A stretch of 64,000 bases of DNA from Thermoanaerobaculia bacterium (GCA_039918595.1 JBDSHF010000028.1:5370-69369); one strand, 5' to 3'; positions 1 to 31,351 are shown, counted from the first letter of the stretch. The notes: generated by a model not told the origin, from the letters alone. Program-made: numbers and translations.

Positions 1-410
1 GGGCCGCACTGCTTGGCACCGTACTTAGTGCCGCTGTTGCAGGAGGTCTTCGCCGACGCTGAGAAGTCGATAGGCAGCGAGATGGTGGAGTCGTCGGTGA
101 AGCGCACTTTCACGTCGAGCGGTGCGGCGGACTGCGACCACTGCGTACCGACCGGGATGGCGACCGAGCCGTCCTTTAGGTCCAGGGCGCCTTGGAGCAC
201 CCGGTCGTCGAGCACCTGATCGCCAACCCGGACTTCGAGGATCTCACTCCGCCGGGCACCGGCGACGTAGATAGTCAGCTCGCCGTTGGAGAACTCCCAG
301 GCGATGCCGTGGCCGTGGTCTTCCGCCTGTGCGGCGACCGGGGCGAGGAGGGAAACTATGGCGAAAAGTGCAACTGTGAGGAGCAGGGTGTGCTGTTTTG
401 TAAAGTTCAC
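1..410 (-). CDS. secreted hypothetical protein, N-terminal part (3' end beyond window)
   Basis: Not in ORF track because it is open at the left edge. GTG at 410 is preceded by AAGGAGG (reverse complement of 418-424). Translation VNFTKQHTLLLTVALFAIVSLLAPVAAQA... looks like a signal peptide. The frame stays open to position 1. Confidence 0.55.
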   Translation of the reverse strand, partial: MNFTKQHTLLLTVALFAIVSLLAPVAAQAEDHGHGIAWEFSNGELTIYVAGARRSEILEVRVGDQVLDDRVLQGALDLKDGSVAIPVGTQWSQSAAPLDVKVRFTDDSTISLPIDFSASAKTSCNSGTKYGAKQCG

Positions 411-525: not shown

Positions 526-529
526 TGTA

Positions 530-623: not shown

Positions 624-662
624 ACCTTCAGCATTTCCACCTCCTTATCCCCTAAATTGAAG

Positions 663-697
663 AAGGCCGCCTGAAGTTCGGGCGGCCTTTCTCATTT
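663..697 (+). terminator. second intrinsic terminator-like hairpin
   Basis: AAGGCCGCC (663-671) pairs with GGCGGCCTT (81-89 of the 66xx line, i.e. 681-689), followed by TCTCATTT. Confidence 0.45.
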
Positions 698-837
698 ACC
701 TCTGACCTAAGCCCCGCTCGCCACGGGGCAGCCGCGTTCCAGGTCTCAGAGGCGCTCTTCTCATATGGCTGGAGAGTACAACCGATCCAATCAAGCTGTC
801 AAGCAAGGTAAGTCGCCATGGCCATCTCTCGGAGTGA

Positions 838-1115
838 CCAAAAACTTCCTATGAGAATTGGGAGCACGACAAACACGAACCGGAGTTCCGGTATTGGCCG
901 GAGATCATTGCCTTCTCCGGGTACGACCCAAGGCGCGAGCCCGAGACTCTCGCGCGAAGAACCCAGGCCACACGCAAGAAGCAAGGTCTCAGCGGGAGCT
1001 TGCCCGGCGTCTCGGGCTCGACCCTTCGACCATCACCGCTTGGGAAGCCGGGACGGTGAAGAGACCCTCCCCTCGGTTCGTCCGGCTATTTGAGGAGTAC
1101 GTGGAGAGTGCCTGA
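838..1115 (+). pseudogene. decayed XRE-family HTH regulator (5'-truncated and frameshifted)
   Basis: Frame A (838-~990) reads ..YENWEHDKHEPEFRYWPEIIAFSGYDPRREPETLARRTQATRKKQGLS. The frame of ORF 858..1115 continues SQRELARRLGLDPSTITAWEAGTVKRPSPRFVRLFEEYVESA. Together they make a typical HTH unit split near 988-993. No start codon for the first part. Confidence 0.5.
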
Positions 1116-12709: not shown

Positions 12710-14326
12710 CTAATTTTCTCGCATCGTCCAAGGTACACTGACAGGTACGTTGGGATGCTCTGAAAGCCAATCGTAGATCTCTGCGATTGCGTGTCTCGAT
12801 CCAAGATGAGGACTGTTTGCCGCTTCCGGCAGATCTGTACCGCTTCGAGGGGTGTACCGAGTACGTCCACCTAGTTCTGTTTCGTCGCCTTTCATAAGCA
12901 GGCGAAAAGGAAACGACAGCTCAATAACAACGTTTTCTCGGCTAACGCACCGGTTCGAGGTGAGCATTTCGAGGAATTCACGTTTTTCCTCGTCATTTCC
13001 CATTTCATGGCTCAACGAGGCCGTAGAAGCAAGTTCGAGGATTTCCCGCAGCCGGGTAGCGGTTTCGTCTTGATTCGTTCCGCCTGAAAGCTTTTCCTCA
13101 AGCTCGCGCTCTTCCATGAGAAGCCGCTTCTTACGGGGCTCGAAGGTTTCCTTGTCGATACTTCCCTCAAGGAAGGCATCTACAAGCCTGTCATGGCGAG
13201 TCTGAAGCGCCGCGAGCTGGAGCTTCCATGTCTCCTGTATACGCTTGGTATTCTCTCCGCAGGTTTCAAGGAAGGCTGTCGCTTCCATCTCCAGGGCCGT
13301 GCGTTCCGAGTCGGACAGCTTGAGCGTTGCATACGCTCCCGTGACCGCGGCATCAAGCACTTCTTCCCGCACGCCGGTCAGAGGACAGGTCTTCGAGTGG
13401 CAGCGGTAGTAGACATGACTTTTTTGCAGCTCGGCGATGAGGGAATACCCGCACTCGGCGCACTTGAACATGCGACGGTAGCGGAAGAGATTGCGTTTGG
13501 CCTGCTTCTGGGTCTTGCCGGAGAGAACCGCCTGCACGCGGTCGAAGAGATGCTTTCCGATGAGCGGCTCGTGCACTCCCTTGTATACCTCCCTTCGCTT
13601 GTGAGCAATGAGCCCTATATAGAAGGGATTGTTGAGCATGGAAGAGAGACCGTTTTTGGTGACACGCCCGCCCTGTCGGTTGCGAAGCCCCATCCGTCGA
13701 AGCTCGGCACACAATGTCTCAAGGCTATGGGCGCCGGTTGCGTATAGCTCGAAGGCTCTGCGGACCATGGGTCCAGTGACCGGGTCAATCGTTTTGACCT
13801 TGCCACGCTGGCCGTTGTTGACGTAGCCCAAGGGCGCTCCCCACGGGAGGAGCCCCTGTTTCAGGCGCCCATCTATACCCTTCCGTACCTCCTCTTTAAG
13901 GTTGCGGATGTAGTCGGTCGCAAAGACCGCCTGCACGTCGGCCAAGAGCCGCTTGCCCCGGGTACTGAGGTCGAGATTGTCGCTTGCGAAGCGGACACCG
14001 AACCCCTCGTCGGCAAGGTCGTTAATGTTGGCCCAATCGTGGTAGTTGCGGCTGGAGCGGTCCACCTTGTGCACGATGAAGCCGTCGGCTTCACCCATCC
14101 GCAGGCGCTTCGCCATGGCGGTGAAAATGGGTCGGCCCTGCTTCGCTGCGGTCTCTACCTCGCGGAACCACTCGACGATGGTCAGCCCTTCACGTTCGGC
14201 ATAGCGGGCGATAACGCTCCGCTGTTCGGTGAAGGAGGCGCCTTCGCGTGAGTCCTTGCTTCCGGGATCTCTTTCGTCGTCTTGGCTTGGATCCGAGACA
14301 CGGATGTAGGCGAAGAATCGCTTCAT
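12710..14326 (-). CDS. large serine recombinase R1
   Basis: FFAYIRVSDPSQ (catalytic Ser region), VHKVDRSSRN, recombinase domain, Cys cluster FKCAECGY...YYRCHSKTCP, then a coiled-coil tail. Confidence 0.85.
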   Translation of the reverse strand: MKRFFAYIRVSDPSQDDERDPGSKDSREGASFTEQRSVIARYAEREGLTIVEWFREVETAAKQGRPIFTAMAKRLRMGEADGFIVHKVDRSSRNYHDWANINDLADEGFGVRFASDNLDLSTRGKRLLADVQAVFATDYIRNLKEEVRKGIDGRLKQGLLPWGAPLGYVNNGQRGKVKTIDPVTGPMVRRAFELYATGAHSLETLCAELRRMGLRNRQGGRVTKNGLSSMLNNPFYIGLIAHKRREVYKGVHEPLIGKHLFDRVQAVLSGKTQKQAKRNLFRYRRMFKCAECGYSLIAELQKSHVYYRCHSKTCPLTGVREEVLDAAVTGAYATLKLSDSERTALEMEATAFLETCGENTKRIQETWKLQLAALQTRHDRLVDAFLEGSIDKETFEPRKKRLLMEERELEEKLSGGTNQDETATRLREILELASTASLSHEMGNDEEKREFLEMLTSNRCVSRENVVIELSFPFRLLMKGDETELGGRTRYTPRSGTDLPEAANSPHLGSRHAIAEIYDWLSEHPNVPVSVPWTMREN

Positions 14327-14556
14327 ACGTCCGTGTCTTCTATTTGTCTTGTAAAGGTTCGACCGGAGTCCATGCTACCGGGGTAATTCGGCGCTGTCAA
14401 AGCGGCGAGGCGCTCGCGCTCGGCCGGATCGGAAGCAATGCGAGCGTGCAGGCGCAGGATAAAAGACAGGTAGCGGCGGAGCGCATGGCGCGCCTCTTCC
14501 GCTTCCTCCGGCGCAAGGTCGGGAAAGAGAGTTTCAGGTGTGGTTTGCGATTGCAT
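14323..14556 (-). CDS. hypothetical protein coupled to recombinase R1
   Basis: Stop overlaps the R1 start by 4 nt. Start chosen at MQSQTT (14556) to leave room for divergent promoters; the track ORF extends to 14673. Confidence 0.35.
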   Translation of the reverse strand: MQSQTTPETLFPDLAPEEAEEARHALRRYLSFILRLHARIASDPAERERLAALTAPNYPGSMDSGRTFTRQIEDTDV

Positions 14557-14665
14557 CCGTCGAGCGTACAGGCGCGGTTCGGAGTGGAGAAGTCGCGCTT
14601 CTGTGCCGGAGTCGGCAGCATGGTGCGTATTTGAGGCGGGATATAAGGGCAGTACGCTCTCCCAC

Positions 14666-15280
14666 ATGACCATACAACTTTCACAAGCGGTGAAAAATCA
14701 CCGCAACCTGCCGCCGGATTTTTGGTTTGACTTAGAGAGCCAGGGCATCAGTGCGGCTGTCATTCACTCCCGCCTCATCGGGTGGGACGAGGAGCACGTG
14801 ACCATTCCGATCGTCTCGCGGGATCGGAAAGTTATCGGCTTCGAATATGCGACGTTTGATGAAAACGGCCGGCTGGTAACAATGCCGCAGGAAGGACCCG
14901 GACCATACCTCTATGGAGAGCCGGTCCTCAATGTCAACCCACAGGAGGTCGTTTTGACTGAGGGCGTAACGGAGTCCTTGATCCTCTCAAGCCACGGATT
15001 CAATGCGCTTTCGGCAACCGGCGACGGTCTTTCATTCCGCACCGAATGGGCGCCCGTCCTTCAGAAGGTCCCGAACGTCTTTCTCTGCTTCAAGCGCGCG
15101 AGCGAAAGCATTCAGGCGGCGCTCGGCATTCGCGAGCTGGTGCCGCACGTCCGGATCGTGACGCTTCCTCCCGAGGTCGGTCAGGGAGGCGGGCTCTACG
15201 AGTTCTTCGTGGAGCTTGAAGCGACGACGGAGGACTTTCGGCAGCTCCTCAAGCGAGCTGCCACTTCTTCCGATGCCTGA
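14666..15280 (+). CDS. Toprim-like domain protein (degenerate)
   Basis: QEVVLTEGVTESLILSSHGFNALSATG resembles the Toprim E-G motif. The expected DxD motif is not seen. Start at the ATG at 14666. Confidence 0.45.
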   Translation: MTIQLSQAVKNHRNLPPDFWFDLESQGISAAVIHSRLIGWDEEHVTIPIVSRDRKVIGFEYATFDENGRLVTMPQEGPGPYLYGEPVLNVNPQEVVLTEGVTESLILSSHGFNALSATGDGLSFRTEWAPVLQKVPNVFLCFKRASESIQAALGIRELVPHVRIVTLPPEVGQGGGLYEFFVELEATTEDFRQLLKRAATSSDA

Positions 15281-16652
15281 TCCTCGCCCAGAGAAGAAGC
15301 AGTTCCGGCCGGTCGTGTCCTTGACCCTGCCTACCGGTGAAATGCTCGAAACGGTATTCGACCCCGCCGCTCCGGCGACGGGGTTTATTGTGTTCGATGG
15401 CAAGAAGTGGAGAAGCGAGCGAAAGGTGGAGCTTCCGGGAGGTGTGACCCTTGTCCCGTACTCGGCAGAGAACAACCTCATCACGCATCGCGTAGTCCTG
15501 TTTCCTTCCGCGCCAGAGGAATACGGCTCCGAGGAGGAGCTGTTCGCCGACGTGCGCTCCTTCATCCATCGCTACGTGGATCTCTCCGATGGCTTCGAGG
15601 AAGTTTCCACCGCATACGTGCTCTTCTCTTGGGTCTATGACGCCTTCAACGAGGTGCCGTACCTGCGCGTGCGCGGCGACTACGGCTCGGGCAAATCGCG
15701 CTTTCTCCTCACCGTGGGGTCCCTCTGCTACAAGCCGATCTTCGCCTCGGGCGCCTCGACGGTCTCTCCGATCTTCCGCATCCTCGACGCCGTGCAAGGG
15801 ACGCTTGTCGTGGATGAGGGAGACTTCCGGGCTTCGGACGAAAAGGCCGAAATCATCAAGATCTTGAACAACGGCAACGCCAAGGGCTTCCCGGTCCTCC
15901 GAAGCGAGCAGACACCCGCGAAGGAGTTCAACCCCCGGGCCTTTCACGTCTTCGGCCCTAAGCTCGTGGCGACGCGGAACCTCTTCGATGACCGGGCGCT
16001 TGAGAGCCGTTGCCTCTCCGAGGAGATGGGTACGCGGCCTCTGCGGCCCGACATCTCCATCAACCTGCCGGAAGCCTTCGAGGAAGAGGCCCGGACTCTC
16101 CGAAACAAGCTCCTCCTCTATCGGCTGCGGACACGGGCGAGCCGCCGGCCGCTTGCCGCTGCGCCTCCGGGGCTTGAGCCGCGCCTCTCGCAGATCCTCT
16201 TGCCGCTTCTCTCTACGGCACCCTCAGAGGAGACGCGAGCGCGCCTCCTCGCGCTTGCGAAACGCTCGGGAGAGGTCATCTCGACCGAGCGGGCCATGGC
16301 GATGGAGGCCGAGGTGCTCGCCATCCTCTACGAGCTGCGGGAGGAGAAGGTCCCGCTCGCGGTTATAGAGATCGCCCAGAGATTCGCGAAGCGCCACGCC
16401 GCCGAGTATGAGTACGCGGTGACGCCCCGCTGGATCGGATCGATTTTACGGAGGAAGCTCATGTTGAACCCCCAGAAGCGCGGGGGCACCTTCACCATCC
16501 CCGCATCCGAGTACCCGAAGCTCGCCCGCCTTTTCGAGAAATACAGCGTGGGGCGCCAGGACATCGGGGACATTGGGGATGTTCAACCGGGAGAGGAGCG
16601 CGATGGCACAAGCGCGGAATCACAAGAGTCCTCGGGCTCCGTGTCCCTGTAG
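15273..16652 (+). CDS. P-loop NTPase, replication/primase-associated helicase-like
   Basis: Walker A GDYGSGKS and Walker B LVVDEGD. 8-nt overlap with the Toprim-like gene. Confidence 0.5.
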   Translation: MPDPRPEKKQFRPVVSLTLPTGEMLETVFDPAAPATGFIVFDGKKWRSERKVELPGGVTLVPYSAENNLITHRVVLFPSAPEEYGSEEELFADVRSFIHRYVDLSDGFEEVSTAYVLFSWVYDAFNEVPYLRVRGDYGSGKSRFLLTVGSLCYKPIFASGASTVSPIFRILDAVQGTLVVDEGDFRASDEKAEIIKILNNGNAKGFPVLRSEQTPAKEFNPRAFHVFGPKLVATRNLFDDRALESRCLSEEMGTRPLRPDISINLPEAFEEEARTLRNKLLLYRLRTRASRRPLAAAPPGLEPRLSQILLPLLSTAPSEETRARLLALAKRSGEVISTERAMAMEAEVLAILYELREEKVPLAVIEIAQRFAKRHAAEYEYAVTPRWIGSILRRKLMLNPQKRGGTFTIPASEYPKLARLFEKYSVGRQDIGDIGDVQPGEERDGTSAESQESSGSVSL

Positions 16653-17675: not shown

Positions 17676-18890
17676 GTGCGTCTTTGGAAGACGGGAGGAG
17701 ACGGGCACGATACGCCGATGCAATCCGACAACGACATCACCTATTTTGCCCGCATTAATCACCGCAACAAGGGGACGCCTTTCGGCATCCGGAGAGCCGA
17801 CCGCCGCACCCACATGTACGTCATCGGGAAGACCGGCACCGGGAAGTCAACGCTCTTGAAAACCCTCGCACTCCACGACATAGAACACGGCGAAGGGCTT
17901 GCATTGTTCGATCCGCACGGGGATCTTGCGGAGGAGATCGTATCGCTCGTGCCTGCGAACAGACGCGCGGATCTCATCTACCTCAACGTGCCGGATCGTT
18001 CCTTCGTCTGGCACTTCAACCCCTTTGCCGGCATTCCGGAAGAGAAGCACGCTCTTGCGGTGGCGGGCATGGTCGAGGTGTTCAAGAAGCTTTGGCCGGA
18101 CGAATGGGGGCCGCGTCTGGAGCATCTCCTCCGAAACGTGGTCTTCACGCTCCTCGCGGCCGGGGGCAACTTGGGCGACGTGCCCCGCCTGCTGTCTGAC
18201 AAGGATTATAGGAACGCAGCGGTGCGCCGGGTTACGAATGGGATGGTCCGGGAGTTCTGGGAGAAGGAGTATGCCGGGTACTCGCCCGCCTTCCGGGCGG
18301 TGGTGACGGCGCCACTCCAGAACAAGCTCGGAGCGTTCCTCACGGACCCCTTGCTCCACTTGATCCTTACCGGCGAGCGCAGCTCCTTCGACCTCAGGCA
18401 GCTCATGGACGGGGGGAAGATCCTCATCGTCAACCTCGCCAAGGGAAGGATCGGGGAGGGGCCGGCAACGCTCCTGGGGTCGCTCCTGGTATCGCACCTC
18501 TCCCTGGCAGCGCTTGAGCGTGCGGACCGGCCCCAGGAGGAGCGGAGGGACTTCTACCTCTACCTGGACGAATTCCACACCTTCGCCACGCTGACGCTCG
18601 CCACCATGCTCTCTGAACTCCGGAAGTACCGGCTAAACCTCATCCTGGCCCACCAGTATCTCTCCCAGTTGGAGACGGAGATCCGGGATGCGGTCTTCGG
18701 GAACGTGGGGACATTCATCGCCTTCCGGGTGGGGGCCTTGGACGCGTCGACCGTTGCCCGGGAGCTGGCGCCGAAGTTCGAGGCGGAGGATCTCCTGTCC
18801 CTGCCGAACTTCTCTGTTTACCTGCGGCTCATGATCCGGGGGGAGCCGTCCAAGCCGTTTAGTGCTGTCAGTTGTGCACCACTGTCTTGA
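17676..18890 (+). CDS. FtsK/HerA/T4CP-superfamily ATPase A (core only)
   Basis: Walker A GKTGTGKS followed by LFDPHGD. YLYLDEFHTFAT...RKYRLNLILAHQYLSQL. Start uncertain (GTG 17676 or ATG 17718). The C-terminus abuts the low-GC cassette. Confidence 0.7.
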   Translation: MRLWKTGGDGHDTPMQSDNDITYFARINHRNKGTPFGIRRADRRTHMYVIGKTGTGKSTLLKTLALHDIEHGEGLALFDPHGDLAEEIVSLVPANRRADLIYLNVPDRSFVWHFNPFAGIPEEKHALAVAGMVEVFKKLWPDEWGPRLEHLLRNVVFTLLAAGGNLGDVPRLLSDKDYRNAAVRRVTNGMVREFWEKEYAGYSPAFRAVVTAPLQNKLGAFLTDPLLHLILTGERSSFDLRQLMDGGKILIVNLAKGRIGEGPATLLGSLLVSHLSLAALERADRPQEERRDFYLYLDEFHTFATLTLATMLSELRKYRLNLILAHQYLSQLETEIRDAVFGNVGTFIAFRVGALDASTVARELAPKFEAEDLLSLPNFSVYLRLMIRGEPSKPFSAVSCAPLS

Positions 18891-18922: not shown

Positions 18923-19879
18923 ATGGCTAAACAAATCGCGGCCCGCTCTCAGGTGACGAGTCCTCACAAGCGTGATTGGCCCTTGGCTATTATTGTATTG
19001 TTCTTTGTCTTTATTTCAGGTTTCACTTTGTCAGCTCAGCCCGCAAGGAAGACTCTGTACACGAGCCAAGATGCCAAAATCGACGAACTGAAGTGTTCAT
19101 CCAAAGACAAGATTTTTCTACCTATTCTTCCGAAAAAGTCAATTTACGGAAAGGTGATCGAACCTGAAGATGTCCTACGCTCGGCGCCTCCTTCGAATCT
19201 TGCAAGTGATGCGGATGAATCTAGGAATTTAGTAGGATATTCGGGACCCTATTACAACGTGGAGGAGCTGACTGGAAATGTCGCCGTGCTCGAAAGGACT
19301 TTATATAACTGGCCGACTAATAATTGGCATGTAACAGGGTTGCTTCGAAATCAAACATGCATGGACATTCGAGTCTCGTCCATAACCGCCCACCTTATCG
19401 GGCCAAGCGGTAAGGAAGTGCGCATTGAAACTGCTACCGTTCCTATTAGTGATTTGAGACCGGGTGAGCCGGCCCCTTTTGATCTAAGTTCTCCAATCCC
19501 AAGAGAGAACGTTGAGCGCGTGGAATGGCAGATTGGATACGCAACAACGACAGAATCGCCCGTTCGGACTTTCTCATTTCTGGTATATCAGTCACGCCAG
19601 ATCACAAGTTCCTCGTACCTGCTTTTCGGCAGTATCCAGAACCTAGGGAGTTCCAGTGCGAGGGGAACTCACATTGTGGCGGCCTGGCTAGATAGTAGCG
19701 GCAGGGTTCGCTATGTAGCATCACCTCTGATTCAACTGGCGACCGGTCCATTGAGTCGAAGAAATAAAATAAATTTGGTGGGCAACGATTTTGAAGATTT
19801 CGTCTTTTCCGCTAATGATCCGCTGCTAGCATCAACGTTGAGTCAGGCAAACGTCGCAATCTGGGGTGTTGCAAATTGA
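18923..19879 (+). CDS. membrane-anchored/secreted protein with two beta-sandwich-like repeats
   Basis: N-terminal anchor WPLAIIVLFFVFISGFTL. Low GC. Stop overlaps the TTG start of the next gene. Confidence 0.55.
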   Translation: MAKQIAARSQVTSPHKRDWPLAIIVLFFVFISGFTLSAQPARKTLYTSQDAKIDELKCSSKDKIFLPILPKKSIYGKVIEPEDVLRSAPPSNLASDADESRNLVGYSGPYYNVEELTGNVAVLERTLYNWPTNNWHVTGLLRNQTCMDIRVSSITAHLIGPSGKEVRIETATVPISDLRPGEPAPFDLSSPIPRENVERVEWQIGYATTTESPVRTFSFLVYQSRQITSSSYLLFGSIQNLGSSSARGTHIVAAWLDSSGRVRYVASPLIQLATGPLSRRNKINLVGNDFEDFVFSANDPLLASTLSQANVAIWGVAN

Positions 19880-22800
19880 AATATTCAGCCTGGGCCTTAT
19901 CAGTGATCGTCCTAATTCTCTCGGGAGAAGGACAAGCGGCAGCGCATGACTTTGGCAGTATACCCTATGACGATGTGGTCTACGCGGCCCAAGTCTATAA
20001 TCAATGCAGGGATACTCTCCCGACTGACAAATTGGTTGCTTACATGCTCGCGCCGACATGGCGAGAATTAACCAATGGCAATACCAATCTAACGCCATCC
20101 CCTATGACATTGGGCAGAGGGGATAACGATTTGGATCTATATCCAGATGGTCAGTCCGGCGCAACTGCTCCGCACCGTCGCGCTTTTTGGCACCCGGGTA
20201 TTGGTCTCTGGCAACTCGATGATATCGGTCTTGGAAAAGACATTAGCACAGAGAAATTCAACTCAAGAGACGCGGCTCAGGTTGCAGCTACCATAATCTC
20301 AACTCGATATTGTAAATCGCCAACAGCTGCGTATATATATGGAGGTATCTGGATTGCTTGTGGGGCGGATGGGAGTCTTTGTCAGGATATTGTCAACCAA
20401 CTCTACAACCCTAATGGCCCTCCAGCGTATACAGTTGGTCGCGACAATAGTGTTGGTCGGTACGGTGGTTCGCAGTTGCATACGTGTAAACTAGCGGGCG
20501 ACACTAGGTATTTCGATTGCCTATATGTTAAGCCTGCCAACCCAGATGGAACACGAGCCAACGCCGAGGGTACTATATCAAGTTGGATTTACCAGCCATT
20601 AGAGGGTCTTTATCCCCCCAATACACCGTCTCCGCTAACAATGCCATTTTATGTCTATCGAGAGGATGCAACTGGAGGGGGATTCGAGTGGCGATATTGG
20701 CTAGCTGCTGATACAGGCTTCGGAAAAGATTATGCTGCTAGACGAACCTATGGCGCCAACTCTCGGGCAGGTCTCCATTGGGTTTCAGATGCGTCAACCA
20801 GCTTAGCTCTCTGTGATGTTACCCTTACACGCGGTGCCTGTGGAGGTATTCCCCAGGCACCTTCGATATCCAACATAGCACAGCTATCGTACGACGGGTC
20901 GCCACTTTCAGTCGGCGCTATTACACAAGCTGGAACCGTTATACTCCGAGGTACACTTGCTGGTTCTCAGGGTCAACAAGTACGAATTGAGCTAGAGGTT
21001 CGGAGAATCTCTGACCCGTTCTTAGGTGAACCGAATTACCTTGGAAACTACGTCACCAGTGGGAGCGTAAGCAAGTGTGTCACGGGACTGCAAGACGCCA
21101 AATATCATTGGCAGGCACGAGTGAGGAGCGATAGTGGACAGTTCAGTCAATGGCTTCAGTTCGGGGGAAACTCTGAAGCCAGTCCTGATTTCGAGGTACA
21201 GGCTAATAGATGTGCTATTTGCACTGCGTCTGGCGCATCTGCTGTGGTCACAAAGTATGGCCGTATTGGAATATCCTGTGGCGTACCCCTGGCTGTAGAA
21301 CTTGCAGCGTCTGTCAACAATGGTATTACCCTGCTTAATGGTGTAAGTCTGACGGCATCGGTGAGTGGTTCGGAAACCGGCACTATAAATTACACGTTTT
21401 ATTGTAATCGTCCCGATGGAGGAATTGATGTTAGATCTGGATGGATTGCCAAGTACGATGGGATTTCGGCGAATCCGAAAACAGCATATGACGTATGTGA
21501 CTATGTTGGGCCGGGTATTTATACTGCAAAGGTGATCGCTGAGCGTGGATCAAGCGCAGCTGAATCACGGACACTCATCACCGTTTCGGCACCTTCAACG
21601 CAAACTCCTTCGGTTACAACGAGTGGCTCGGCAAATGTGACCCAAAGTAGTGCGACTCTCAGTTTATCTGTTAATCCAAACGGGTCTGATACTTCAGCCT
21701 GGTTTGATTGGGGGACGAGCACCTCCTTCTGCTGTAACACGAGTCAGCAGACAGTCGCGGCTAGTTCGGGAGCGTCACTGCTTAGTATGACCGTAGGCGC
21801 CCTTCAATGCGACACAACCTACTACTTCCGAGCCCACGCACAAAGTGTAGGCGGAGAAGCCACAGGAAGCACCTTGTCATTCCGAACGGGTGCATGTGGC
21901 AACGGCCCCCAAACCGTTCAACTTGTGCCTGATCCAGGCTTCGAGCAAGGAAACAATGCGTGGTGGGTAGCGAGCCCAGCGTTCTATATCGATCATGCTC
22001 CCACCTTCCCGAATCCGCGCAATGGAAGTTACTACGCTTTCCTTTCCACGTCCAACGGCTCGGCGGGCAACAATTTGCAGGGCGGCGTGATATCGCCCCA
22101 AGTCACCATTCCTTCAAACGCAAGCGGAGCTGAACTGCGCTTCTGGTATAGCGTTTCGACACAGGAGACGAGTACATCAATCTTTGATACCCTCAAGGCT
22201 TACCTAGTTAAGCCGGGGAATCAAGCGACACTCTTTGCAACCATCTCAAACTTGGACAATTCTGGCACAACGTATAGAGAGAAGGTTGTCGGCATTCCCT
22301 CCTCATTTTTCGGCGGCCCGGTGCAGATCTTTTTCTCTGGCGCAACAGACGGTAGCTTGCCTACCGTCTTCCGCGTAGACGATGTGACGCTTTCTGCCTT
22401 CATCCCTGCGACGGCCGGTTCGCCTGTCGTTAGCACGGGGTCTGTTGACCAAATTACCTCGTCTAGCGGACGGCTCAGCATGACTGTCAACCCCAACGGT
22501 GCCGACACTCAGGTGTGGTTTGATATAGAAACGAACAATCCGCCGAACTCTGAGACAGAGCACGTAGCTATAGGAACCGGGCAGCAGGCCGAGGGCGTTA
22601 GCATTAGTGTATTCGGCTTGCGATGCGACACGACCTACTACTATCGGGCTGATGCCGTCAATTCGTACGGATCACAGCTAGGCTCTGTGAGTTCTTTTAG
22701 AACCAGTACTTGTCCCGTTCAAGCCCCCTCAGTATCAACCACTGTTGCTGACAGTATAACGTCCACCTCTGCGCGTTTGGTTGGGAGCGTCAATCCAAAC

Positions 22801-24789
22801 GGCTTCTCAACAACGGTTTGGTTCGCTTGGGGAACCGATACGACGCTCGGAAATTCTACGCCTAGCCAGAACGTCGGCAGTGGTAATTCTTCAGTGAGCT
22901 TCGCGGCTACACTCAATAACCTTCAGTGCGGCACTACCTACTACTACCGTGCCAAGGGGCAGAACAGCGGCGGGCAGACATCCGGTGCGCTCTACAACGT
23001 AACAACTTCCCCTTGCAGCCAAATACCCGTTATAACGATAACGGCAAGCGATCCGACTGCGACTGAAAATCCCATGACTACGGGGGAGTTTCTCATCCAG
23101 CGAACAGGAGATCTTTCTAGTGCGTTATCGGTGGCATACACCGTGGGAGGAACCGCCATCGTTGGGGTAGATCACACGCTTGGAGGCGGGAGCGTGACCA
23201 TCCCCTCTGGATCAGCCTCGACTACTTTGACCGTCTTTCCGATCGACGATTCACTGGTCGAACCAGATGAGACCGTCGTTGTGACGCTTCAGCCGCAGTC
23301 CCAATATACAGTTGGTACCCCAAGCGGTGCCACTGTTACAATTACGAGTGATGATACGGGATGTGCCTTAAGTGTCATAAGGCCGCAAGGTGGAGAGGTG
23401 TGGACAAAAGGATCACCTCATACCGTTCAGTGGAGTGCGAACTCTGATTGCGTGGACTTTGCCTTTATTCTATACAGAAATGGTAACTTTGATGGCTACC
23501 TGACAGGTTCTCTGTCCGGGAGCCAATTTAGCTGGACACCTCCGGCGTGGCTCGTACCAAGTCCCGGGCTGCAGATTGATGTTGTAGGATTCAACGCTGA
23601 TGGCACTGGTGTTTCGGCGCGTTCAAACAACTTTACGCTTATCAACCCTGCGGTCCTTCCCGCAGTCATATTCCAGGACACTGTAGAGACTAACGATGAG
23701 TTCAACTACTACTCCGAAGGATGGGGAGTGACAAATTTCACCTCGCACAGCCCCACGCATTCGCGCGCGGATAGTCCTGCTTTCTACGGCAACAACACGA
23801 ACAGCTCACTTATAACACCTAAAATCGATGTTAGTAGCCGCACCTCCCTCTCTCTCAGCTTCTGGCATCGCTTTAGTCTTGCGGACTTCGACTTCGTGAA
23901 CGTCTGGGTTAAGACCGATCAAGGAGATTGGATCTTCTTGCAGGGCTTTACCGGAATCCAATCTGACTGGCGACAGGTCACAATTAACCTGAACGCTTTC
24001 CTTGGCCAACCGTCTGTTCAGGTCGCTTTTCAGATAGTATCTGATGATGCTCTGACTGCCGATGGCTGGTATATCGACGACATCGTATTGAGTGGGGCGA
24101 GTGACACTAATAAAATTTTCTCTAATGGTTTTGAGTCCGGTGATCTTTCGGCATGGTTGGTGGCGCCGCCGAGCGACGGAAGCATCGTTTCTGTTTTGGA
24201 GCAGGGTGTCCCAGGGCAACCCGGAAAGGATATTTGGACAACGAGCAACTATTCATTTGCGCCGGGCGGCAACACGCCGGGAGGTGGGTTGGACAACGAA
24301 GAGCTTGTAGTAGGAGGATGGGGCGACAATTACTACAGCCTCCTTGAGTTCAATCTCGCAGGGCTTCCAAGTCACGCATCCTCGGCAGTGCTCAAGCTCT
24401 TTTGCTACCGGACTCGTGCTACCGAAACGATTGGCATGTATGTCGAGCGTATAACCCAGATATGGGATTGGCGTACCCAAGGCACCGGCCGAGATAGGGA
24501 GAGGTTATGGTGGGCAGACCAACCGCAGTCACTCAATTGGATAGGCTTGCCGGTCACGAAGCCGACGGTAGGGCAGTGGTACTCAATCGACATCACGGAT
24601 CTCTATAACGCATGGCAGAACGGATCTGTGCCAAACTACGGCATCAAGCTCACACCGGTTGATAATGGTAACGAGTGGAGCGAGTTTTACAGCGCAAACT
24701 ACTCTGATCCGGCCTTCCGGCCTCGGCTCGTAATTCGGCCGGATCAATCTACCGTTAAACGTTCTCCTCTATCTAGGAAGCCACGGTAG
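19876..24789 (+). CDS. giant secreted multidomain protein (three FN3-like repeats, Calx-beta-like and DNRLRE-like C-terminal domains)
   Basis: Signal peptide MKYSAWALSVIVLILSGEGQAAA. Three repeats with NPNG..T..WF.WGT...LQC.TTYYYRA (~21600-23015). Calx-beta-like ITITASDPTATE...VEPDETVVVTL. C-terminal GGLDNEELVVGGWGDNYYSLLEFNL. Confidence 0.8.
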   Translation: MKYSAWALSVIVLILSGEGQAAAHDFGSIPYDDVVYAAQVYNQCRDTLPTDKLVAYMLAPTWRELTNGNTNLTPSPMTLGRGDNDLDLYPDGQSGATAPHRRAFWHPGIGLWQLDDIGLGKDISTEKFNSRDAAQVAATIISTRYCKSPTAAYIYGGIWIACGADGSLCQDIVNQLYNPNGPPAYTVGRDNSVGRYGGSQLHTCKLAGDTRYFDCLYVKPANPDGTRANAEGTISSWIYQPLEGLYPPNTPSPLTMPFYVYREDATGGGFEWRYWLAADTGFGKDYAARRTYGANSRAGLHWVSDASTSLALCDVTLTRGACGGIPQAPSISNIAQLSYDGSPLSVGAITQAGTVILRGTLAGSQGQQVRIELEVRRISDPFLGEPNYLGNYVTSGSVSKCVTGLQDAKYHWQARVRSDSGQFSQWLQFGGNSEASPDFEVQANRCAICTASGASAVVTKYGRIGISCGVPLAVELAASVNNGITLLNGVSLTASVSGSETGTINYTFYCNRPDGGIDVRSGWIAKYDGISANPKTAYDVCDYVGPGIYTAKVIAERGSSAAESRTLITVSAPSTQTPSVTTSGSANVTQSSATLSLSVNPNGSDTSAWFDWGTSTSFCCNTSQQTVAASSGASLLSMTVGALQCDTTYYFRAHAQSVGGEATGSTLSFRTGACGNGPQTVQLVPDPGFEQGNNAWWVASPAFYIDHAPTFPNPRNGSYYAFLSTSNGSAGNNLQGGVISPQVTIPSNASGAELRFWYSVSTQETSTSIFDTLKAYLVKPGNQATLFATISNLDNSGTTYREKVVGIPSSFFGGPVQIFFSGATDGSLPTVFRVDDVTLSAFIPATAGSPVVSTGSVDQITSSSGRLSMTVNPNGADTQVWFDIETNNPPNSETEHVAIGTGQQAEGVSISVFGLRCDTTYYYRADAVNSYGSQLGSVSSFRTSTCPVQAPSVSTTVADSITSTSARLVGSVNPNGFSTTVWFAWGTDTTLGNSTPSQNVGSGNSSVSFAATLNNLQCGTTYYYRAKGQNSGGQTSGALYNVTTSPCSQIPVITITASDPTATENPMTTGEFLIQRTGDLSSALSVAYTVGGTAIVGVDHTLGGGSVTIPSGSASTTLTVFPIDDSLVEPDETVVVTLQPQSQYTVGTPSGATVTITSDDTGCALSVIRPQGGEVWTKGSPHTVQWSANSDCVDFAFILYRNGNFDGYLTGSLSGSQFSWTPPAWLVPSPGLQIDVVGFNADGTGVSARSNNFTLINPAVLPAVIFQDTVETNDEFNYYSEGWGVTNFTSHSPTHSRADSPAFYGNNTNSSLITPKIDVSSRTSLSLSFWHRFSLADFDFVNVWVKTDQGDWIFLQGFTGIQSDWRQVTINLNAFLGQPSVQVAFQIVSDDALTADGWYIDDIVLSGASDTNKIFSNGFESGDLSAWLVAPPSDGSIVSVLEQGVPGQPGKDIWTTSNYSFAPGGNTPGGGLDNEELVVGGWGDNYYSLLEFNLAGLPSHASSAVLKLFCYRTRATETIGMYVERITQIWDWRTQGTGRDRERLWWADQPQSLNWIGLPVTKPTVGQWYSIDITDLYNAWQNGSVPNYGIKLTPVDNGNEWSEFYSANYSDPAFRPRLVIRPDQSTVKRSPLSRKPR

Positions 24790-25641: not shown

Positions 25642-28600
25642 ATGGCGAGCCGGGTTGAGGAGCGCACCCACCATTTCTTCCGGTGGGAACGGCGGGGCCG
25701 CGGACGGCGGAGCTTCCTGTCTCCCGTCTCGCTTGAGCCGCCCTTCACTCCCTTTTGGTTCGTGAAACATGCCGCGCCCGCCCTCGATGACGGCAGGCAT
25801 CACACCTTCTTGTCAGCCTTCCTCGAACGGTTCTCTGGTAAGCGGGAGGCGCCGCCACCTGAGCCCGAGATCGAAGAGCCGGAGGCGGAACCCGGAGACG
25901 AGGGGGAGCCTGTCGAGCTACGGGTCCTCCTGCCGCAGGAGCTTTCCGTCACGGCGGCGCTCTCCGAAGGCTTCCTCAAGAGCCTTGCGGCCGTCCATAC
26001 GCCGCTCTCGCTGGAACTGGTCGGCATAGGCGGAGAGGTGGCGGTTTCCCTCACCAGCCGCAGGACGGCGGTGCCGATCCTCTCCTCCCAACTGCGGGCC
26101 TTCTTCCCGGAGGTACGCCTGGAGGAGGAAGAAGATCTCCTCCTCACTGCCTGGGAGTCGGGAGTGGAGGGTGTCTTCGGCGCCGTCGAGCTTGGCCTGT
26201 CCCGCGAGTTCATGCTACCCCTCGGCCGTCCGCGAAACTTCACGCCCGATCCCTTGACCGCGATCGTGGGAGCGCTTGCGGAGACTGCGCCCGGCGAGGT
26301 TGTCATCGTCCAGGTGCTCTTTCAGGGAGTGCGGTCGCCGTGGGCGGAGAACATCGTGCGGTCGGTGACCACACCCTCCGGCGAGCCCTTCTTCGCTGAC
26401 GCTCCCGAGGTCACCAAGCTTGCCCGCGAGAAAGTATCCGCACCGCTCTTCGCCGTTGCCGTTCGCGTCGTGGCGCGGGGAGCAACCGAGGAGCGGCTGT
26501 GGACGCTTCTCTCGGGTAGCCTTGGCGCGCTCGTGGGCGCAACGAGAGGTGACAACGAACTTGTGCCGCTCGGGACGGATGACAGTACCGAGATCTTGGG
26601 AGACGTGCTCCTGCGCAGGACCCACCGGAGCGGCTTTCTCCTCTCGCTTCCCGAGCTGCTTCCCCTGGTTCACCTTCCGTCGCCCTCGATCCCCGGCATC
26701 GCCCGGGACACCGGCCGCACCAAGCTCCTCCCCGAGGAGGCACAGGAAGGCGGGCTCTTCCTCGGGTACAACGTCCATGCGGGAAGGGAGCGCGAGGCGC
26801 GGCTCTCGACGGACGCGCGCCTCCGCCACGTGCATGTCGTGGGGGCTTCGGGCACCGGCAAGTCAACGCTTCTGGTGTCCATGATCCTCCAGGACATTGC
26901 CGCCGGGCACGGCGTGGGCGTCATCGACCCGCACGGCGATCTCATCGACCACGTGCTCGGCGGGATTCCTGAAAACCGAGCGGCGGACGTAATCCTCTTT
27001 GACCCGGCCGACCCGGAGCATGTCGTCGGCTGGAACATACTCTCCGCGCACTCCGAAGCAGAGAAAGACATGCTCTCCTCGGACCTCGTTGCGGTCTTCC
27101 GCAGGCTTTCGACCTCCTGGGGCGACCAGATGACGGCGGTCCTTGCGGGCGCGATTCTCGCCTTCCTGGAGTCAGAGCGGGGCGGCACGCTCCTCGATCT
27201 GCGGCGGTTCCTCGTGGACCAGGGCTTCCGGCGGGAGTTTCTCGCCACCGTCCGCGACGAGTATGCCCGAGACTTCTGGACGAGAGAGTTTCCGGTGCTC
27301 AAGGGCTCGCCTCAGGCGTCGATCGTGACCCGGCTCGATACGCTTCTCCGGGGCAAGCTCGTGCGCGGGGTGGTGACGGCCAGAGACAAGCCCCTGGACT
27401 TCCGGGGAGTGGTGGACGACCGGCGGATCTTCCTGGCGAAGCTCTCGCAGGGTGCCATCGGCGAGGAGAACGCTGCGCTCCTGGGGTCGCTTCTCGTCTC
27501 GAAGATCCACCAAGTATGCCTTCTGCGGCAGGATCAGGCCGAGGGTTCGCGCCGGCCGTTCTTCCTCTACCTCGACGAGTTCCACAACCTCGCGACGCCC
27601 TCCATGGCGACGCTCTTCTCCGGGGCGCGCAAGTACCGCCTCGGGGTGACCGTCGCGCATCAGGATCTCTACCAGCTCCACGCCTCCGTTCCCGAAGTCG
27701 AACGGGCCGTCCTCGGGAACGCATACACCCGGATCTGCTTCCGCCTCGGCGACGAGGACGCCCGGACCTTATCTGCGGGCTTCTCCTTCTTCACGGCAGA
27801 CGACCTCGGGAACCTCGACACCGGAAGAGCGATCTGCCGGGTGGGCAGGAAGGAGCACGACTTCAACCTCTCCGTCGTGCCGATGGAGCATGGAGACCCT
27901 GAGGCGCATGAAGCGAGGCGCCGGGATGTCCGGGCGCGGTCGCTTGCGAGGTGGGGCGCGCCGCGCTCTGCGGAGCCGCCGGCGGCTCCCGCACCTCCCG
28001 AGAGGCCACGAGCGGAAGCACCGCCACGAGTCGAAGTGCCACTGGCGCAGCCGCAACCCAAACGAGAGACAGCCCCGCCGCCTTCGGCTCCGCCCCCTCT
28101 ACCCGCACAGGTGCAAGCTCCCGAGCCACCTCCGGTCGAACCGCGCCGCCCGGGCAAAGGCGGGCCGGAGCACACGTATCTCCAGGAACTCATCAAGCGG
28201 TGGGGAGAGGAGAAGGGCTTCCGGGCAGTGGTCGAGGAGCAGATTGCGGGCGGCAGGGAAAGCATAGACATCGCCCTCTACCGGGGCGACCTCAAGATCG
28301 CCTGCGAGGTCTCGGTCACGACGCCTCTTGAATATGAGGTCGGGAACGTGGAGAAGTGCCTTGCGGCCGGATTCGGGACGGTGGCGGTCGTGTCTCTCAA
28401 GAAGGCCCGACTCGCGAAGCTCGGAAAGCTCCTCGACGAAGCCATTCCTTCCGAGAGCCGGGCCAAGGTCCACCTATTCACGACGGAGGAGTTGCTCTCA
28501 TGGCTTGAGGGGCAGCCGGTCCACGAGGAGGTGAAAACTGTCAGGGGATGGAAGGTCAAGGTCAAGTACCGCGATCCGGGAGATGACCGCATGAAGCGCG

Positions 28601-28650
28601 TCGCCGAGATCCTGGCCCGGAGTACGAGCGGGCTAGAGAAGGATGGGTAG
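25642..28650 (+). CDS. FtsK/HerA/T4CP-superfamily ATPase B with long N-domain, Pro-rich linker and C-terminal PD-(D/E)xK-like nuclease domain
   Basis: Walker A GASGTGKS plus VIDPHGD. FFLYLDEFHN...RKYRLGVTVAHQDLYQL, paralogous to ATPase A. Linker PPAAPAPPERP...PPPLPAQ. C-terminal GRESIDIALYRGDLKIACEVSV. Confidence 0.7.
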   Translation: MASRVEERTHHFFRWERRGRGRRSFLSPVSLEPPFTPFWFVKHAAPALDDGRHHTFLSAFLERFSGKREAPPPEPEIEEPEAEPGDEGEPVELRVLLPQELSVTAALSEGFLKSLAAVHTPLSLELVGIGGEVAVSLTSRRTAVPILSSQLRAFFPEVRLEEEEDLLLTAWESGVEGVFGAVELGLSREFMLPLGRPRNFTPDPLTAIVGALAETAPGEVVIVQVLFQGVRSPWAENIVRSVTTPSGEPFFADAPEVTKLAREKVSAPLFAVAVRVVARGATEERLWTLLSGSLGALVGATRGDNELVPLGTDDSTEILGDVLLRRTHRSGFLLSLPELLPLVHLPSPSIPGIARDTGRTKLLPEEAQEGGLFLGYNVHAGREREARLSTDARLRHVHVVGASGTGKSTLLVSMILQDIAAGHGVGVIDPHGDLIDHVLGGIPENRAADVILFDPADPEHVVGWNILSAHSEAEKDMLSSDLVAVFRRLSTSWGDQMTAVLAGAILAFLESERGGTLLDLRRFLVDQGFRREFLATVRDEYARDFWTREFPVLKGSPQASIVTRLDTLLRGKLVRGVVTARDKPLDFRGVVDDRRIFLAKLSQGAIGEENAALLGSLLVSKIHQVCLLRQDQAEGSRRPFFLYLDEFHNLATPSMATLFSGARKYRLGVTVAHQDLYQLHASVPEVERAVLGNAYTRICFRLGDEDARTLSAGFSFFTADDLGNLDTGRAICRVGRKEHDFNLSVVPMEHGDPEAHEARRRDVRARSLARWGAPRSAEPPAAPAPPERPRAEAPPRVEVPLAQPQPKRETAPPPSAPPPLPAQVQAPEPPPVEPRRPGKGGPEHTYLQELIKRWGEEKGFRAVVEEQIAGGRESIDIALYRGDLKIACEVSVTTPLEYEVGNVEKCLAAGFGTVAVVSLKKARLAKLGKLLDEAIPSESRAKVHLFTTEELLSWLEGQPVHEEVKTVRGWKVKVKYRDPGDDRMKRVAEILARSTSGLEKDG

Positions 28651-28791: not shown

Positions 28792-30375
28792 ATGATGCGT
28801 CCCCGAACCCCTAACAGCGAAGGCAAACGGGTGGGGCTCTGGATCAGAGTCTCGACCGAAGACCAAGCACGGGGCGAGAGTCCCGAGCACCACGAAGCGC
28901 GCGCCCGGATGTATGCCGAGAGCAAGGACTGGACCGTCATAACGGTCTACCACCTCGAAGGCGTGTCAGGGAAGTCGGTCATGCAGCACCCCGAGGCACA
29001 GCGGATGCTTGCCGATGTCAGGCAAGGGTCGATCTCCGGCCTCATCTTCTCCAAGCTCGGCCGCCTAGCCCGGAACACGACCGAGCTACTGGAGTTTGCC
29101 GCGATCTTCGAGCAGCACGGTGCCGACCTCATTTCCCTCGGCGAGTCGATCGACACCTCCACTCCCGCCGGCCGTCTCTTCTACACCTTGATCGCCGCCA
29201 TGGCGACCTGGGAGCGAGAGGAGATCGCCTCTCGGGTCGCGGCTTCCGTGCCTATCCGGGCCAAGCTCGGGAAGAAGCTCGGCGGAGCCGCCCCCTACGG
29301 CTACGCCTGGAAGGACGGCAAGCTCGCCCCTGAAGAGAAAGAGGCGCCTGTCCGGAAGCTCATGTATGAACTCTTCCGACAGACCAAGCGCGTGCGGACG
29401 GTTGCCCGGCTCTTGAACGAGCAAGGATACCGGACCCGAAACGGAAGCCTCTTCACCCATGTCACGGTGCGGCGCCTCATCCTCGACCCCACCGCTAAGG
29501 GGGTACGCCGCGCCAACTACACCAAGAGCCTGGGTGACGGGAAGAAGTGGAAGCTCAAGCCCGAAAGCGAATGGGTAGAGCTGCCAGTCCCCCCGATCGT
29601 GGACGAAGCGGTCTGGGAATCGTGCGCCTCGATCCTCCGGGAGAGGGCGAACGGCCGCAAGCCCGGTCCCCGGACAGTCCACCTCTTCACTGGCGTTGTC
29701 TTCTGCCATTGTGGGCGGAAGATGTACGTGCCCTCGAACAACCCTAAGTGGATCTGCCAGGGGTGCCACAACAAGATCCCCATTCCGGACCTTGAGGCCG
29801 TCTTCGAAGAACGGCTTCAGGCGCTCGTCTTCTCCCCTGAGCAGTTTGACGTCCACCTTCGGGAAACAGAGGCGACGATCGAGGCAAAGCGGGAGGAGCT
29901 GGCAGTGCTACTGCGGGAAGAAGACTCCGTAAAGGCTGAGTCCGACAAGCTCTACCGCCTCTACCTCGAAGGGGGCCTCCCGGTCCCGGCCTTTCGGGAA
30001 AGGAACGATCCTCTGGAGGAGCGGAAAGAGCAACTGCGGCTCCAGATTCCCCGGCTCAAGGGAGAGATAGACTTCCTCGTGATACGGCAGCTCGGAAGTA
30101 CAGAGACTCTTGTCGAGGCCCAGACCCTCTACGAGAAGTGGGCGATCCTCTCCTTCGGGATCAAGCGGGAGATCGTCGAAACCATCGTGGAGCGGATCGA
30201 CGTCGGGGTGGGCGATGTCGAGATCACCCTCTCTTGCGACATACCCGAGCCCCCCGACTTCCCCCTTTCCCCTGAACTCATGGCAGAAGGGGAACGAATC
30301 TCCAGGGATTCATCGCGGCGAGCAGGGAAAACCGGGCCGGGAAGACCAGCCGGGCGCGGGCCCGCACGACGCTGA
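28792..30375 (+). CDS. large serine recombinase R2 (island integrase candidate); ORF runs across the island/comM junction
   Basis: [23 protein letters not shown], recombinase domain, Cys cluster [10 protein letters not shown]...WICQGCHNK, coiled coil. ATG at 28792 with GGAGA RBS. The last ~25 codons lie in comM-antisense DNA. Confidence 0.85.
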
Positions 30376-31351
30376 CGTTCCCCTCTTCGAGCGGCTGGCG
30401 CAGGGCTTCCAGGGTGTCGCGCCGGAATTCCGGGAGCTCGTCGAGGAAGAGGACGCCGTTGTGGGCCAGGCTCGCCTCGCCCGGCCGCGGGTTGCTGCCG
30501 CCGCCGATCATCCCCGCCGTGCTGGTCCCGGTGTGCGGGCTGCGGAACGGCCGCTGGCGCAGCAGCCCCGCCGGCGGCTCCTCGGCCACCAGGGAGTGGA
30601 CCTTGGTGACCGCGATCGACTCCGCCAGGGTGAGCGGCGGCAGGATCCCCGGCAGGCGGCGGGCGAGCATGGTCTTCCCTGAGCCTGGAGGCCCGAGGAA
30701 GAGGAGGTTGTGGCCGCCGGCCGCGGCCACCTCCAGAGCCCGTTTCGCCATCTCCTGCCCCCGCACCTCGGAGAGGTCGGGCGCCCCCATCAGCAACTCA
30801 ATGGAAAAGGGGGGAGCCGGGACGGCCGGCAGCTCCGCCTCACCCGTAAGGTGCTGGACGGCCTCGGCAAGCCCCCGGAGACCGAAGACCGGGACGGCTT
30901 CGAGGGCAGCCGCCTCGGCGGCGTTGGCCGCCGGCAGCAGGACCTCGCGGACTCCCATGCGGCGCCCGAGGTCGGCGATGGCCAGACCGCCGCGCACGGA
31001 GCGGATGGCGCCGTCGAGCCCCAGCTCGCCGCAGATCAGCCGCCCGGCGAGGGCGTCCTGCGGGATCTGCTCGTAGGCCGCGAGCATCGCCAGGGCAATG
31101 GCGAGGTCGAGGTGGTTGCCCTCCTTGCGGAGGTCGGCCGGCGCGAGATTGATGATGATGGACTTGGGTTCCAGGTCGAAGCCGCAGTTTTTGATCGCGG
31201 CGCGCACCCGCTCGCGGCTCTCGCGGACCGCGGCATCGGCAAGTCCCACGATCTGAATCTGCGGGAGTCCGTTCTGGACGTCGACCTCTACCTGGACGGG
31301 GCGTGCTTCGATCCCCCATGGCGTGGCGGTGGTGGCTCTGGCTAGCATCAA
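30278..31351 (-). pseudogene. comM: comM/yifB (Mg-chelatase-like ATPase), 5' two-thirds, interrupted by the island
   Basis: [32 protein letters not shown], Walker [20 protein letters not shown]. Ends at AAMNP, whereas full-length relatives are about 500 aa. Confidence 0.75.
30295..30310. other. approximate island/chromosome junction (attR)
   Basis: comM translation ..FSLLAAMNP is followed by WRFVPLLP-stop instead of the expected CPCG-type continuation. Confidence 0.5.

Follow-up and report, generated by a model that had tools for sequence, protein, structure and literature searches.

The window analysed here, a stretch of 64,000 nucleotides from a Thermoanaerobaculia (Acidobacteriota) bacterium (GCA_039918595.1, JBDSHF010000028.1:5370-69369), contains the right-hand end of a mobile element lying within comM (yifB), which encodes an AAA+ protein of the Mg-chelatase family. 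An earlier note, made from the sequence alone, had placed the junction of a genomic island inside this gene and had described a recombinase gene, here called R2, that reads across it on the opposite strand. We have located the crossover to the base, compared the locus with its relatives, and found that in relatives of R2 the recombinase reading frame continues past the attachment site into a tail with two helix-turn-helix (HTH) domains. The features that make up the junction are as follows.

28795..30375, plus strand: large serine recombinase R2, integrated-state form, 526 amino acids from its ATG (open reading frame, Pfam, homologues with 57-98% identity)
30277..30302, plus strand: P arm of the attachment site, CTCATGGCAGAAGGGGAACGAATCTC, which lies within the R2 gene and is translated there as ..LMAEGERIS
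30303..30304, plus strand: inferred central (crossover) dinucleotide CA, which reads TG in the comM sense and forms the first two bases of the Cys349 codon
30304..30375, plus strand: 23 antisense comM codons (30304..30372) plus stop, added to R2 by integration
30305..31348, minus strand: 5' fragment of comM (yifB), codons 1-348; the reading frame extends to 30278 through element DNA

The minus-strand open reading frame (ORF) at 30278..31348 encodes the N-terminal two thirds of ComM/YifB, and after codon 348 it runs through 8 element-encoded codons (WRFVPLLP) to a stop. A complete ComM/YifB of about 507 amino acids consists of a Lon-like ChlI N-domain, a Mg_chelatase core and a Mg_chelatase_C lid; in the product of the window ORF, Pfam recognised ChlI and Mg_chelatase (positions 1-159/207) and no Mg_chelatase_C, and the Cys cluster, the LLDRID segment and the C-domain are all absent. 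When an intact 507-residue orthologue (P0001) was compared with the window by tblastn, only residues 1-349 were matched, at 31348..30302, and residues 350-507 had no match anywhere in the window, in agreement with the earlier observation that the C-terminal portion is missing. Over residues 1-348 the two proteins are identical at 325 positions (93%), with neither gaps nor stops. The window copy is a truncated allele of a true orthologue, and the loss of the lid domain, together with the Cys cluster and the LLDRID segment, probably leaves its product inactive. The closest homologues come from metagenome-assembled genomes (MAGs) of Thermoanaerobaculia, and most of the 120 listed are 507 amino acids long. 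Fourteen of the 120 measure 337-391 amino acids, and every one of these breaks after ..AAMNP, at the same codon as the window copy. What follows is W or C with element-derived residues, or an immediate stop (codons TGG, TGC or TGA); the breakpoint must therefore carry TG followed by a variable base.

R2 is a large serine recombinase. Pfam matched Resolvase (PF00239, E=9.4e-29, residues 50-194 of a 560-residue form that would begin at an in-frame GTG at 28693) and Recombinase (PF07508, E=8e-19), and the motif WIRVSTEDQ is present. The zinc-ribbon domain with embedded coiled coil that comes after the Recombinase domain in such enzymes (PF13408) was matched in a relative (P0204) and not reported for R2 itself, whose sequence has a CHCG..CQGC cysteine motif and then a long helical, charged stretch. 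The gene was called as 526 amino acids on an independent Logan contig. Its reading frame crosses 30303-30304 uninterrupted, as previously described, and after ..LMAEGERIS the protein ends in 23 codons that are the reverse complement of comM codons 326-348, where about 25 had been estimated. This read-through is a property of the family: of 121 proteins compared (R2 and the 120 homologues listed, 57-98% identical), 86 pass into antisense comM at one and the same alignment position. The antisense tail varies in length, 48 homologues having 8 codons and 19 having 23; the shorter form occurs in most hosts and the longer in the GC-rich lineage of the window. Tail length therefore follows from the codons and G+C content of the host comM and not from selection on the recombinase, and the 23-codon tail of R2 is incidental, under no selection and with no sign of function.

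As the source is evidently a metagenome-derived genome, and as an independently assembled Logan contig (SRR26386590_3263) ends at about window position 1029, the junction might in principle be a chimera of two unrelated contigs joined inside comM. On that Logan contig, however, the same ComM fragment is joined to the same recombinase, and dozens of relatives have the same breakpoint, seen from the ComM side and from the recombinase side. The G+C content, moreover, falls from about 68% on the right of 30.3 kb to 48-67% on its left. The junction is neither an assembly artefact nor a product of chance, and its anatomy is that of a serine-integrase site, so that a chimera can be discounted for practical purposes. 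The placement of the island junction inside comM is accordingly sustained by the ORFs, by tblastn, by independent assembly and by recurrence of the breakpoint.

The attP and attB sites recombined by serine integrases are short and have nothing in common but a central dinucleotide, the asymmetry of which sets the orientation of the insertion. The earlier note had proposed that attB and the crossover be defined by alignment with an uninterrupted comM. With the intact comM of L091 as attB reference, TG/CA proved to be the only sequence common to attB, to attR (window, L088), to attL (L087, L090) and to attP (L083, L082), which places the central dinucleotide at 30303-30304, inside the interval 30295-30310 previously suggested for attR. 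The P arm to its left, read on the opposite strand, supplies the WRFVPLLP tail and stop of the truncated ComM; it can be aligned to the P arms found in L083, L082, L088, L084 and L085, and in the first two of these it forms one half of a dyad-symmetric attP. That of L083 reads ATGGCATCTGGGCAACGCAACTT[CA]TTCCTGCGTTGCCTTTTTGCCAT, with the dyad centred exactly on the boundary between F497 and I498 of the recombinase. The same boundary emerges from proteins: P0181 and P0197 are 94.8% identical over 497 residues, and P0181, from an integrated copy, switches at F497 to antisense comM (..QRNF|RDSWRPPA*). P0197 is one of five homologues of 644-656 amino acids (with P0204, P0206, P0207 and P0212) that show no comM switch and continue as ..QRNF|IPALPFCH.. 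into two HTH_3 domains. The dyad at the F|I boundary and the comparison of P0181 with P0197 together imply that these contigs carry an unrecombined attP inside the ORF. Both the P arm and the crossover of the window element likewise fall within the R2 ORF, which in the free form of relatives runs on into two HTH domains.

The sites of the family can thus be written at base resolution, attB as ..ATGAAYCCN[TG]CCCNTGYGG.. and attP as a sequence resembling ..GAACGAATCTC[CA]TCCCTGCGTTCC.. (in junction form, ..GCCGCGATGAATCCC TG CCCNTGYGG.. and ..GGGGAACGAATCTC CA TCCCTGCGTTCC.., respectively). The dinucleotide is the only sequence the sites share, and the attP dyad is centred on it. Two kinds of variant behave as serine integrases should. 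Relatives that target a gene for a protein of the metallo-beta-lactamase (MBL) fold (L084, L085) have GA at the crossover position, and in L089, where the element sits in comM in the opposite orientation, the central dinucleotide is inverted. In the latter contig (at about 1100-1130) the recombinase is of the P0135 type and has a stop of its own shortly ahead of the P arm; TG connects it to the sense strand of the comM 3' part, and the attB used is that of the window element. A search for an inverted copy of the P arm in the window and in L085 returned self-matches only. A loose P'-arm pattern run against viral_contigs gave 120 matches, which we dismissed as chance, none of them being from the R2 family.

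How the two halves fit together can be seen on a 37.3-kb JGI contig (Ga0672836_0000281; L087 and L088), where a related element, about 25.9 kb long and complete, occupies the same comM site and has a recombinase (P0130) 74% identical to R2. Joining the ends of this element at CA produces a single in-frame ORF of 657 amino acids, consisting of the recombinase and a 144-residue tail (IPAFPFCGVTLRGRKP..). This tail contains two HTH_3/HTH_31 domains, is homologous to its counterparts in the fused proteins, and has 434-repressor/Xre domains as its nearest solved structures. Joining the flanking comM halves through TG produces a 507-residue ComM, 90% identical to P0001. The two proposals of the earlier note, that excision would change the C-terminus of R2 and that it could restore comM, are both borne out by this relative.

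The tail is not peculiar to one element. A scan of JGI metagenomes for left ends, using the pattern P' arm + TG + CCCNTGYGG, recovered 90 attL junctions with varied host ComM sequences (e.g. CPCGHLG, CPCGYFN, CPCGFYN). Fifty-eight distinct junctions had at least 520 nucleotides of element DNA, and a frame was counted as open if it ran for at least 130 codons from the crossover. By this measure the recombinase frame was open in 46 of the 58 and the other two frames in 0 and 1, and the open tails include low-GC hosts, in which stop codons are frequent. An in-frame start codon upstream of the crossover was present in only 15 of 43 attL tails. Full-length proteins of 633-674 amino acids with a recombinase and two HTH domains fall into at least 12 separate clusters at 50% identity, with identities down to 33%; on that account the fused architecture is best regarded as old and maintained.

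We favour, with a probability of about 0.72, a reading in which the window contains most of an element of about 31 kb that R2 inserted into comM, with attP inside a recombinase-HTH gene, such that excision would rebuild both genes. In the unintegrated state the ORF would consist of the recombinase core, a Pro-rich linker, the P arm, the crossover, the P' arm and some 145 amino acids with two Xre/cI-type HTH domains. R2 inserted the element through a 2-bp crossover at TG in the Cys349 codon, which makes 30303-30304 attR. Integration cuts the ORF at the crossover: the core stays at the right end and gains antisense comM codons up to the first stop, and the HTH tail is carried off to the opposite, left end and lacks a conserved start codon there. 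The insertion by a 2-bp crossover, the truncation of ComM after residue 348 and that of the recombinase ORF at the crossover are seen directly, as are the in-frame tail in relatives and the restored comM of one relative. If excision is precise, the 507-residue comM (attB) and a recombinase-HTH fusion of about 650 amino acids (attP) would both be rebuilt, and the HTH tail, presumably made only from the circular form, might alter the activity or regulation of the recombinase and so act as a sensor of the integration state.

Several points weigh against this reading. Three relatives (P0135, P0136, P0137) have a stop of their own before the P arm; the HTH gene of L090 leaves the frame some 16 codons on and starts from an ATG of its own; and 12 of the 58 attL tails contain early stops. 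From these exceptions it follows that the recombinase core may work without the tail. A terminal overlap, the sign of circularity, was looked for in L083 with a negative result. No candidate directionality factor was identified in the element, such factors having no common sequence signature. Lastly, the left end of the window element and the 3' part of comM lie outside the window, so that the HTH tail there is a matter of prediction.

The first of these points could be taken to mean that the recombinase ends, functionally, before attP, and that the HTH gene is a separate downstream regulator; the long fused ORFs and the read-through would then be by-products of site constraints and of GC-rich DNA poor in stop codons, and integration would merely part the HTH gene from the recombinase promoter. 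The stop before the P arm is visible in the DNA of L089, the separate ATG and frame of the L090 HTH gene are what such an arrangement would produce, and the variation of antisense tail length between hosts agrees with it. The joining of genes and promoters across a circular junction is, moreover, an established theme for integrative elements, Tn916 being an example. Against this stand the 46 of 58 tails open in the recombinase frame, with essentially none open in the others and low-GC hosts included, the absence of a conserved start in the tail, and the persistence of fused proteins in clusters down to 33% identity. We consider a separate regulator unlikely.

The favoured reading makes a definite prediction about the unseen end, which rests on colinearity with the related element on the JGI contig (L087/L088). 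Window 3-827 corresponds to L087 8956-8138 (85% identity), a segment that spans a CHAP-domain gene and its upstream region, and window 1597-2332 matches L087 7594-6857. In L087 the CHAP gene stands between the attL HTH tail and the rest of the element, with the tail and attL about 1,010 nucleotides beyond the point that aligns with window base 3. In the window the CHAP gene runs off the left edge, and the element must therefore continue beyond it. This colinearity puts the island at about 31.3 kb, with attL predicted about 1.0 kb to the left of base 1. The left end is expected to consist of antisense comM codons 507-349, CA, and a P' arm resembling TCCCTGCGTTCCC(C/T)TTCTGCCAT, followed by an ORF of about 145 amino acids (IPAFPFCHVTLRGRKP..) with two HTH domains in the R2 frame, and then by the remainder of the CHAP gene. 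Two features of the window bear on this end.

1..410, minus strand: 5' part of the CHAP-domain gene, running off the left edge (L087 8549-8956, 82% amino-acid and 85% nucleotide identity)
847..1115, plus strand: HTH-tail remnant, second HTH only, 5'-truncated and frameshifted (tblastn against the L087 tail)

The remnant has 53% identity to residues 55-144 of the L087 tail in two frames (tblastn) and 75% nucleotide identity to the L277 tail, and it occupies a variable spot in the backbone at which L087, colinear on both flanks, has unrelated sequence. It may be a trace left by past recombination of one element with another. A terminator-like hairpin, AAGGCCGCC-TGAAGTTCG-GGCGGCCTT, followed by a T-rich run, is also present at 660-695 (plus strand), in the conserved intergenic stretch that separates the CHAP gene from the remnant.

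The remnant and the lack of a comM 3' part in the window invite the suspicion that the element is fixed and decaying, so that comM would be a relic, its partner end would be missing or rearranged, and rebuilding of either gene would be impossible; a large low-GC cargo gene of 1637 amino acids and a second recombinase, described below, also suggest a history of rearrangement. We examined the specific idea that the remnant is the decayed left end itself, with the element locked in place and the 3' part of comM deleted, and rejected it, since both flanks of the remnant, including the CHAP gene, are colinear with L087: the remnant is internal, and the real end would lie about 1 kb beyond the window. 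Nor do the genes at the junction look decayed, the comM fragment having no stops or gaps over 348 codons at 93% identity to intact orthologues, and R2 being intact, with a 98%-identical copy found elsewhere. Decay of the element is, in our estimate, improbable.

Under serine-integrase chemistry, precise excision with a directionality factor regenerates attB and attP. If the favoured reading holds, the integrity of a competence gene would be tied to the state of the element, as the earlier note envisaged; this link extends an established idea to the present case and presupposes, in addition, a directionality factor. A bolder version can be formulated, in which this clade has deliberately split the gene of its own enzyme with its attP: only the circle would encode the fusion, the integrated copy would encode an enzyme lacking the tail, and the HTH domains would serve as a built-in sensor of the integration state that biases the enzyme towards integration or autoregulates the element. 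This would be the serine counterpart of IntP/IntX in phage Mx8 and of integration-dependent immunity, both discussed below; it would occur in several phyla and be linked to a reversible loss of comM function. We offer this version tentatively, as a possibility that may well claim too much.

The remaining features of the window element concern its backbone and cargo.

12710..14326, minus strand: second large serine recombinase, R1, 538 amino acids, with a zinc-ribbon domain (Pfam)
17676..18890, plus strand: second, shorter TrwB-like ATPase, 404 amino acids, backbone (Pfam; 84% amino-acid identity to its L088 equivalent by tblastx)
25642..28650, plus strand: TraG/TrwB-like coupling-protein homologue, 1002 amino acids, just upstream of R2 (Pfam T4SS-DNA_transf, TrwB_AAD_bind, TraG-D_C)

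The TrwB-like ATPase, the TraG-like protein of about 1000 amino acids, and R1 with its primase-like neighbour form a backbone common to L085, L088 and L090, and the same TraG-like gene precedes the recombinase in L084, L085 and L088. R1 is only 23% identical to R2. Next to it, at 14540-16652 on the plus strand, are a primase-like gene and an ORF of about 480 amino acids, and this three-gene module recurs inside the L090 element; a second integrase, a resolvase or an invertase are candidate roles for R1. An ArdC-N-like gene is also found in the window element. Pfam and PHROGs recognised no relaxase or type IV secretion system gene in it, and PHROGs recognised no phage structural gene among the 10 ORFs tested; the element is therefore not assigned to a class. 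At 19876-24789 (plus strand) a 1637-amino-acid ORF with MAM, Calx-beta, CBM96 and PhoD-N-like domains lies in a block of 48-54% G+C, compared with about 60% for the island and about 68% for the host. It looks like recent cargo, and L088 has a different gene, of 750 amino acids, near that position. The contigs with intact attP have defence-type cargo immediately upstream of the recombinase: SMODS + SLATT and Abi_C in L082 (2220-4589), and an OLD-like TOPRIM ATPase with a UvrD helicase (Gabija-like) and a SymE toxin in L083 (4564-8188).

The clade is not confined to comM, nor comM to the clade. R2 relatives with 64-80% identity lie in the 3' part of the MBL-fold (Lactamase_B_2) gene at L084 4650 and L085 11503, with the dinucleotide GA and recombinases ending in ..TSTATPWPS*; these insertions represent target switching within one recombinase clade. 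Such tails had been considered as a possible excised-state C-terminus, a notion discarded once they were recognised as the mark of this second chromosomal target. In a subfamily whose members end in ..AAKRERTP| (P0142-P0164), the tails after the junction are varied (RVSCVT*, RSSCAT*, PASYASSTPTW.., ITAGHLRR*), which suggests several further chromosomal targets. A contig profile search with a ComM C-terminal profile gave matches that, as listed, come mostly from distant phyla; among them was one split comM locus, with a different recombinase and a different breakpoint (L005 1-2000, Acidobacteriaceae MAG BP_11). There an unrelated, apparently frameshifted serine recombinase abuts the 3' part of comM, with the breakpoint some 17 codons ahead of AAMNP, so that sites close together in comM are used by two recombinase lineages or more. 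Many ComM C-terminal fragments of 162 amino acids (P0260-P0266, P0299, P0352), on contigs of 40-175 kb, start exactly at MNP|CPCG. Candidate causes are another site of insertion a little way upstream, mimicry of ATGAAYCC by a P' arm, or gene calling from the first ATG.

The insertion of an element into comM by a serine integrase is in itself ordinary and already known. Phage WO sr1WO integrates into a Mg-chelatase gene of Wolbachia, its recombinase and its HTH_XRE regulators standing at opposite ends (PMC9203015), and Durrant et al. report that a gene annotated 'ATP-dependent protease' was hit by 12.4% of site-specific large serine recombinases (bioRxiv 10.1101/2021.11.05.467528). As a ComM homologue (P0079) carries this very name at NCBI, the target in question is presumably ComM. 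Like sr1WO and the comM-targeting recombinases, R2 appears to have put a large element into a Mg-chelatase-family coding sequence. Unlike sr1WO, the window element has a host in the Thermoanaerobaculia (Acidobacteriota) and carries coupling-protein-like genes, with no phage structural genes detected. A recombinase ORF that crosses attP into HTH domains is not described in what was read of PMC9203015 or bioRxiv 10.1101/2021.11.05.467528.

The disruption of a transformation gene by a mobile element also has parallels. In Listeria, prophages in comK practise 'active lysogeny', in which precise excision restores the competence gene. In natural transformation ComM acts as a hexameric branch-migration helicase (PMC6158740), and the AbaR islands of A. 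baumannii consistently disrupt comM (PMC11441513). The window element resembles the AbaR and comK cases in lying within a transformation gene that precise excision would restore, and differs from the AbaR islands in that these are Tn7-like transposons.

For the split recombinase gene the precedents we found all involve tyrosine integrases. In myxophage Mx8 (IntP/IntX), attP lies within the integrase gene, and integration gives a new 3' end and altered activity (PMC6070905). The R2 family is similar in having attP inside an integrase coding sequence and a recombinant gene upon integration; the difference is that the tyrosine integrase of Mx8 swaps a short C-terminal segment, whereas the serine integrases of the R2 family lose two HTH domains. 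In integration-dependent immunity, known from mycobacteriophage BPs and clusters G/N/P and from M. abscessus prophages, attP lies in a phage gene and the viral and prophage C-termini differ (PMC8092301); ORF13 of phage RSS0 is another example of attP within a gene (PMC3816273). There, as proposed here, the integration state is read out as a change in a protein; in contrast to the R2 family, however, the split gene is that of the repressor, the integrase is a tyrosine integrase and it is a short degradation tag that is removed. No description of attP inside a serine integrase gene was found in the literature searched, the coverage of which was incomplete and gives weak evidence of absence. The split recombinase-HTH gene thus appears to be undescribed.

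With attP inside a gene for a recombinase and a double-HTH tail, each recombination event would rewrite the C-terminus of the very enzyme that carries it out. If the two forms behave differently, the arrangement would constitute a natural, self-contained control of the direction of a serine integrase, with a bearing on how elements decide between staying and leaving and also on genome engineering, where integrase directionality is now controlled by separate or artificially fused factors. As the R2 family is abundant and its sites are defined at base resolution, the hypothesis is directly testable. In engineered fusions of integrases with recombination directionality factors, a C-terminal partner is reported to change the directionality of a serine integrase (PMC5737554). 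Such fusions are artificial, and the HTH tail of the R2 family is natural and has no similarity to known directionality factors; what the two would have in common is that the C-terminus of a serine integrase offers a workable point of control.

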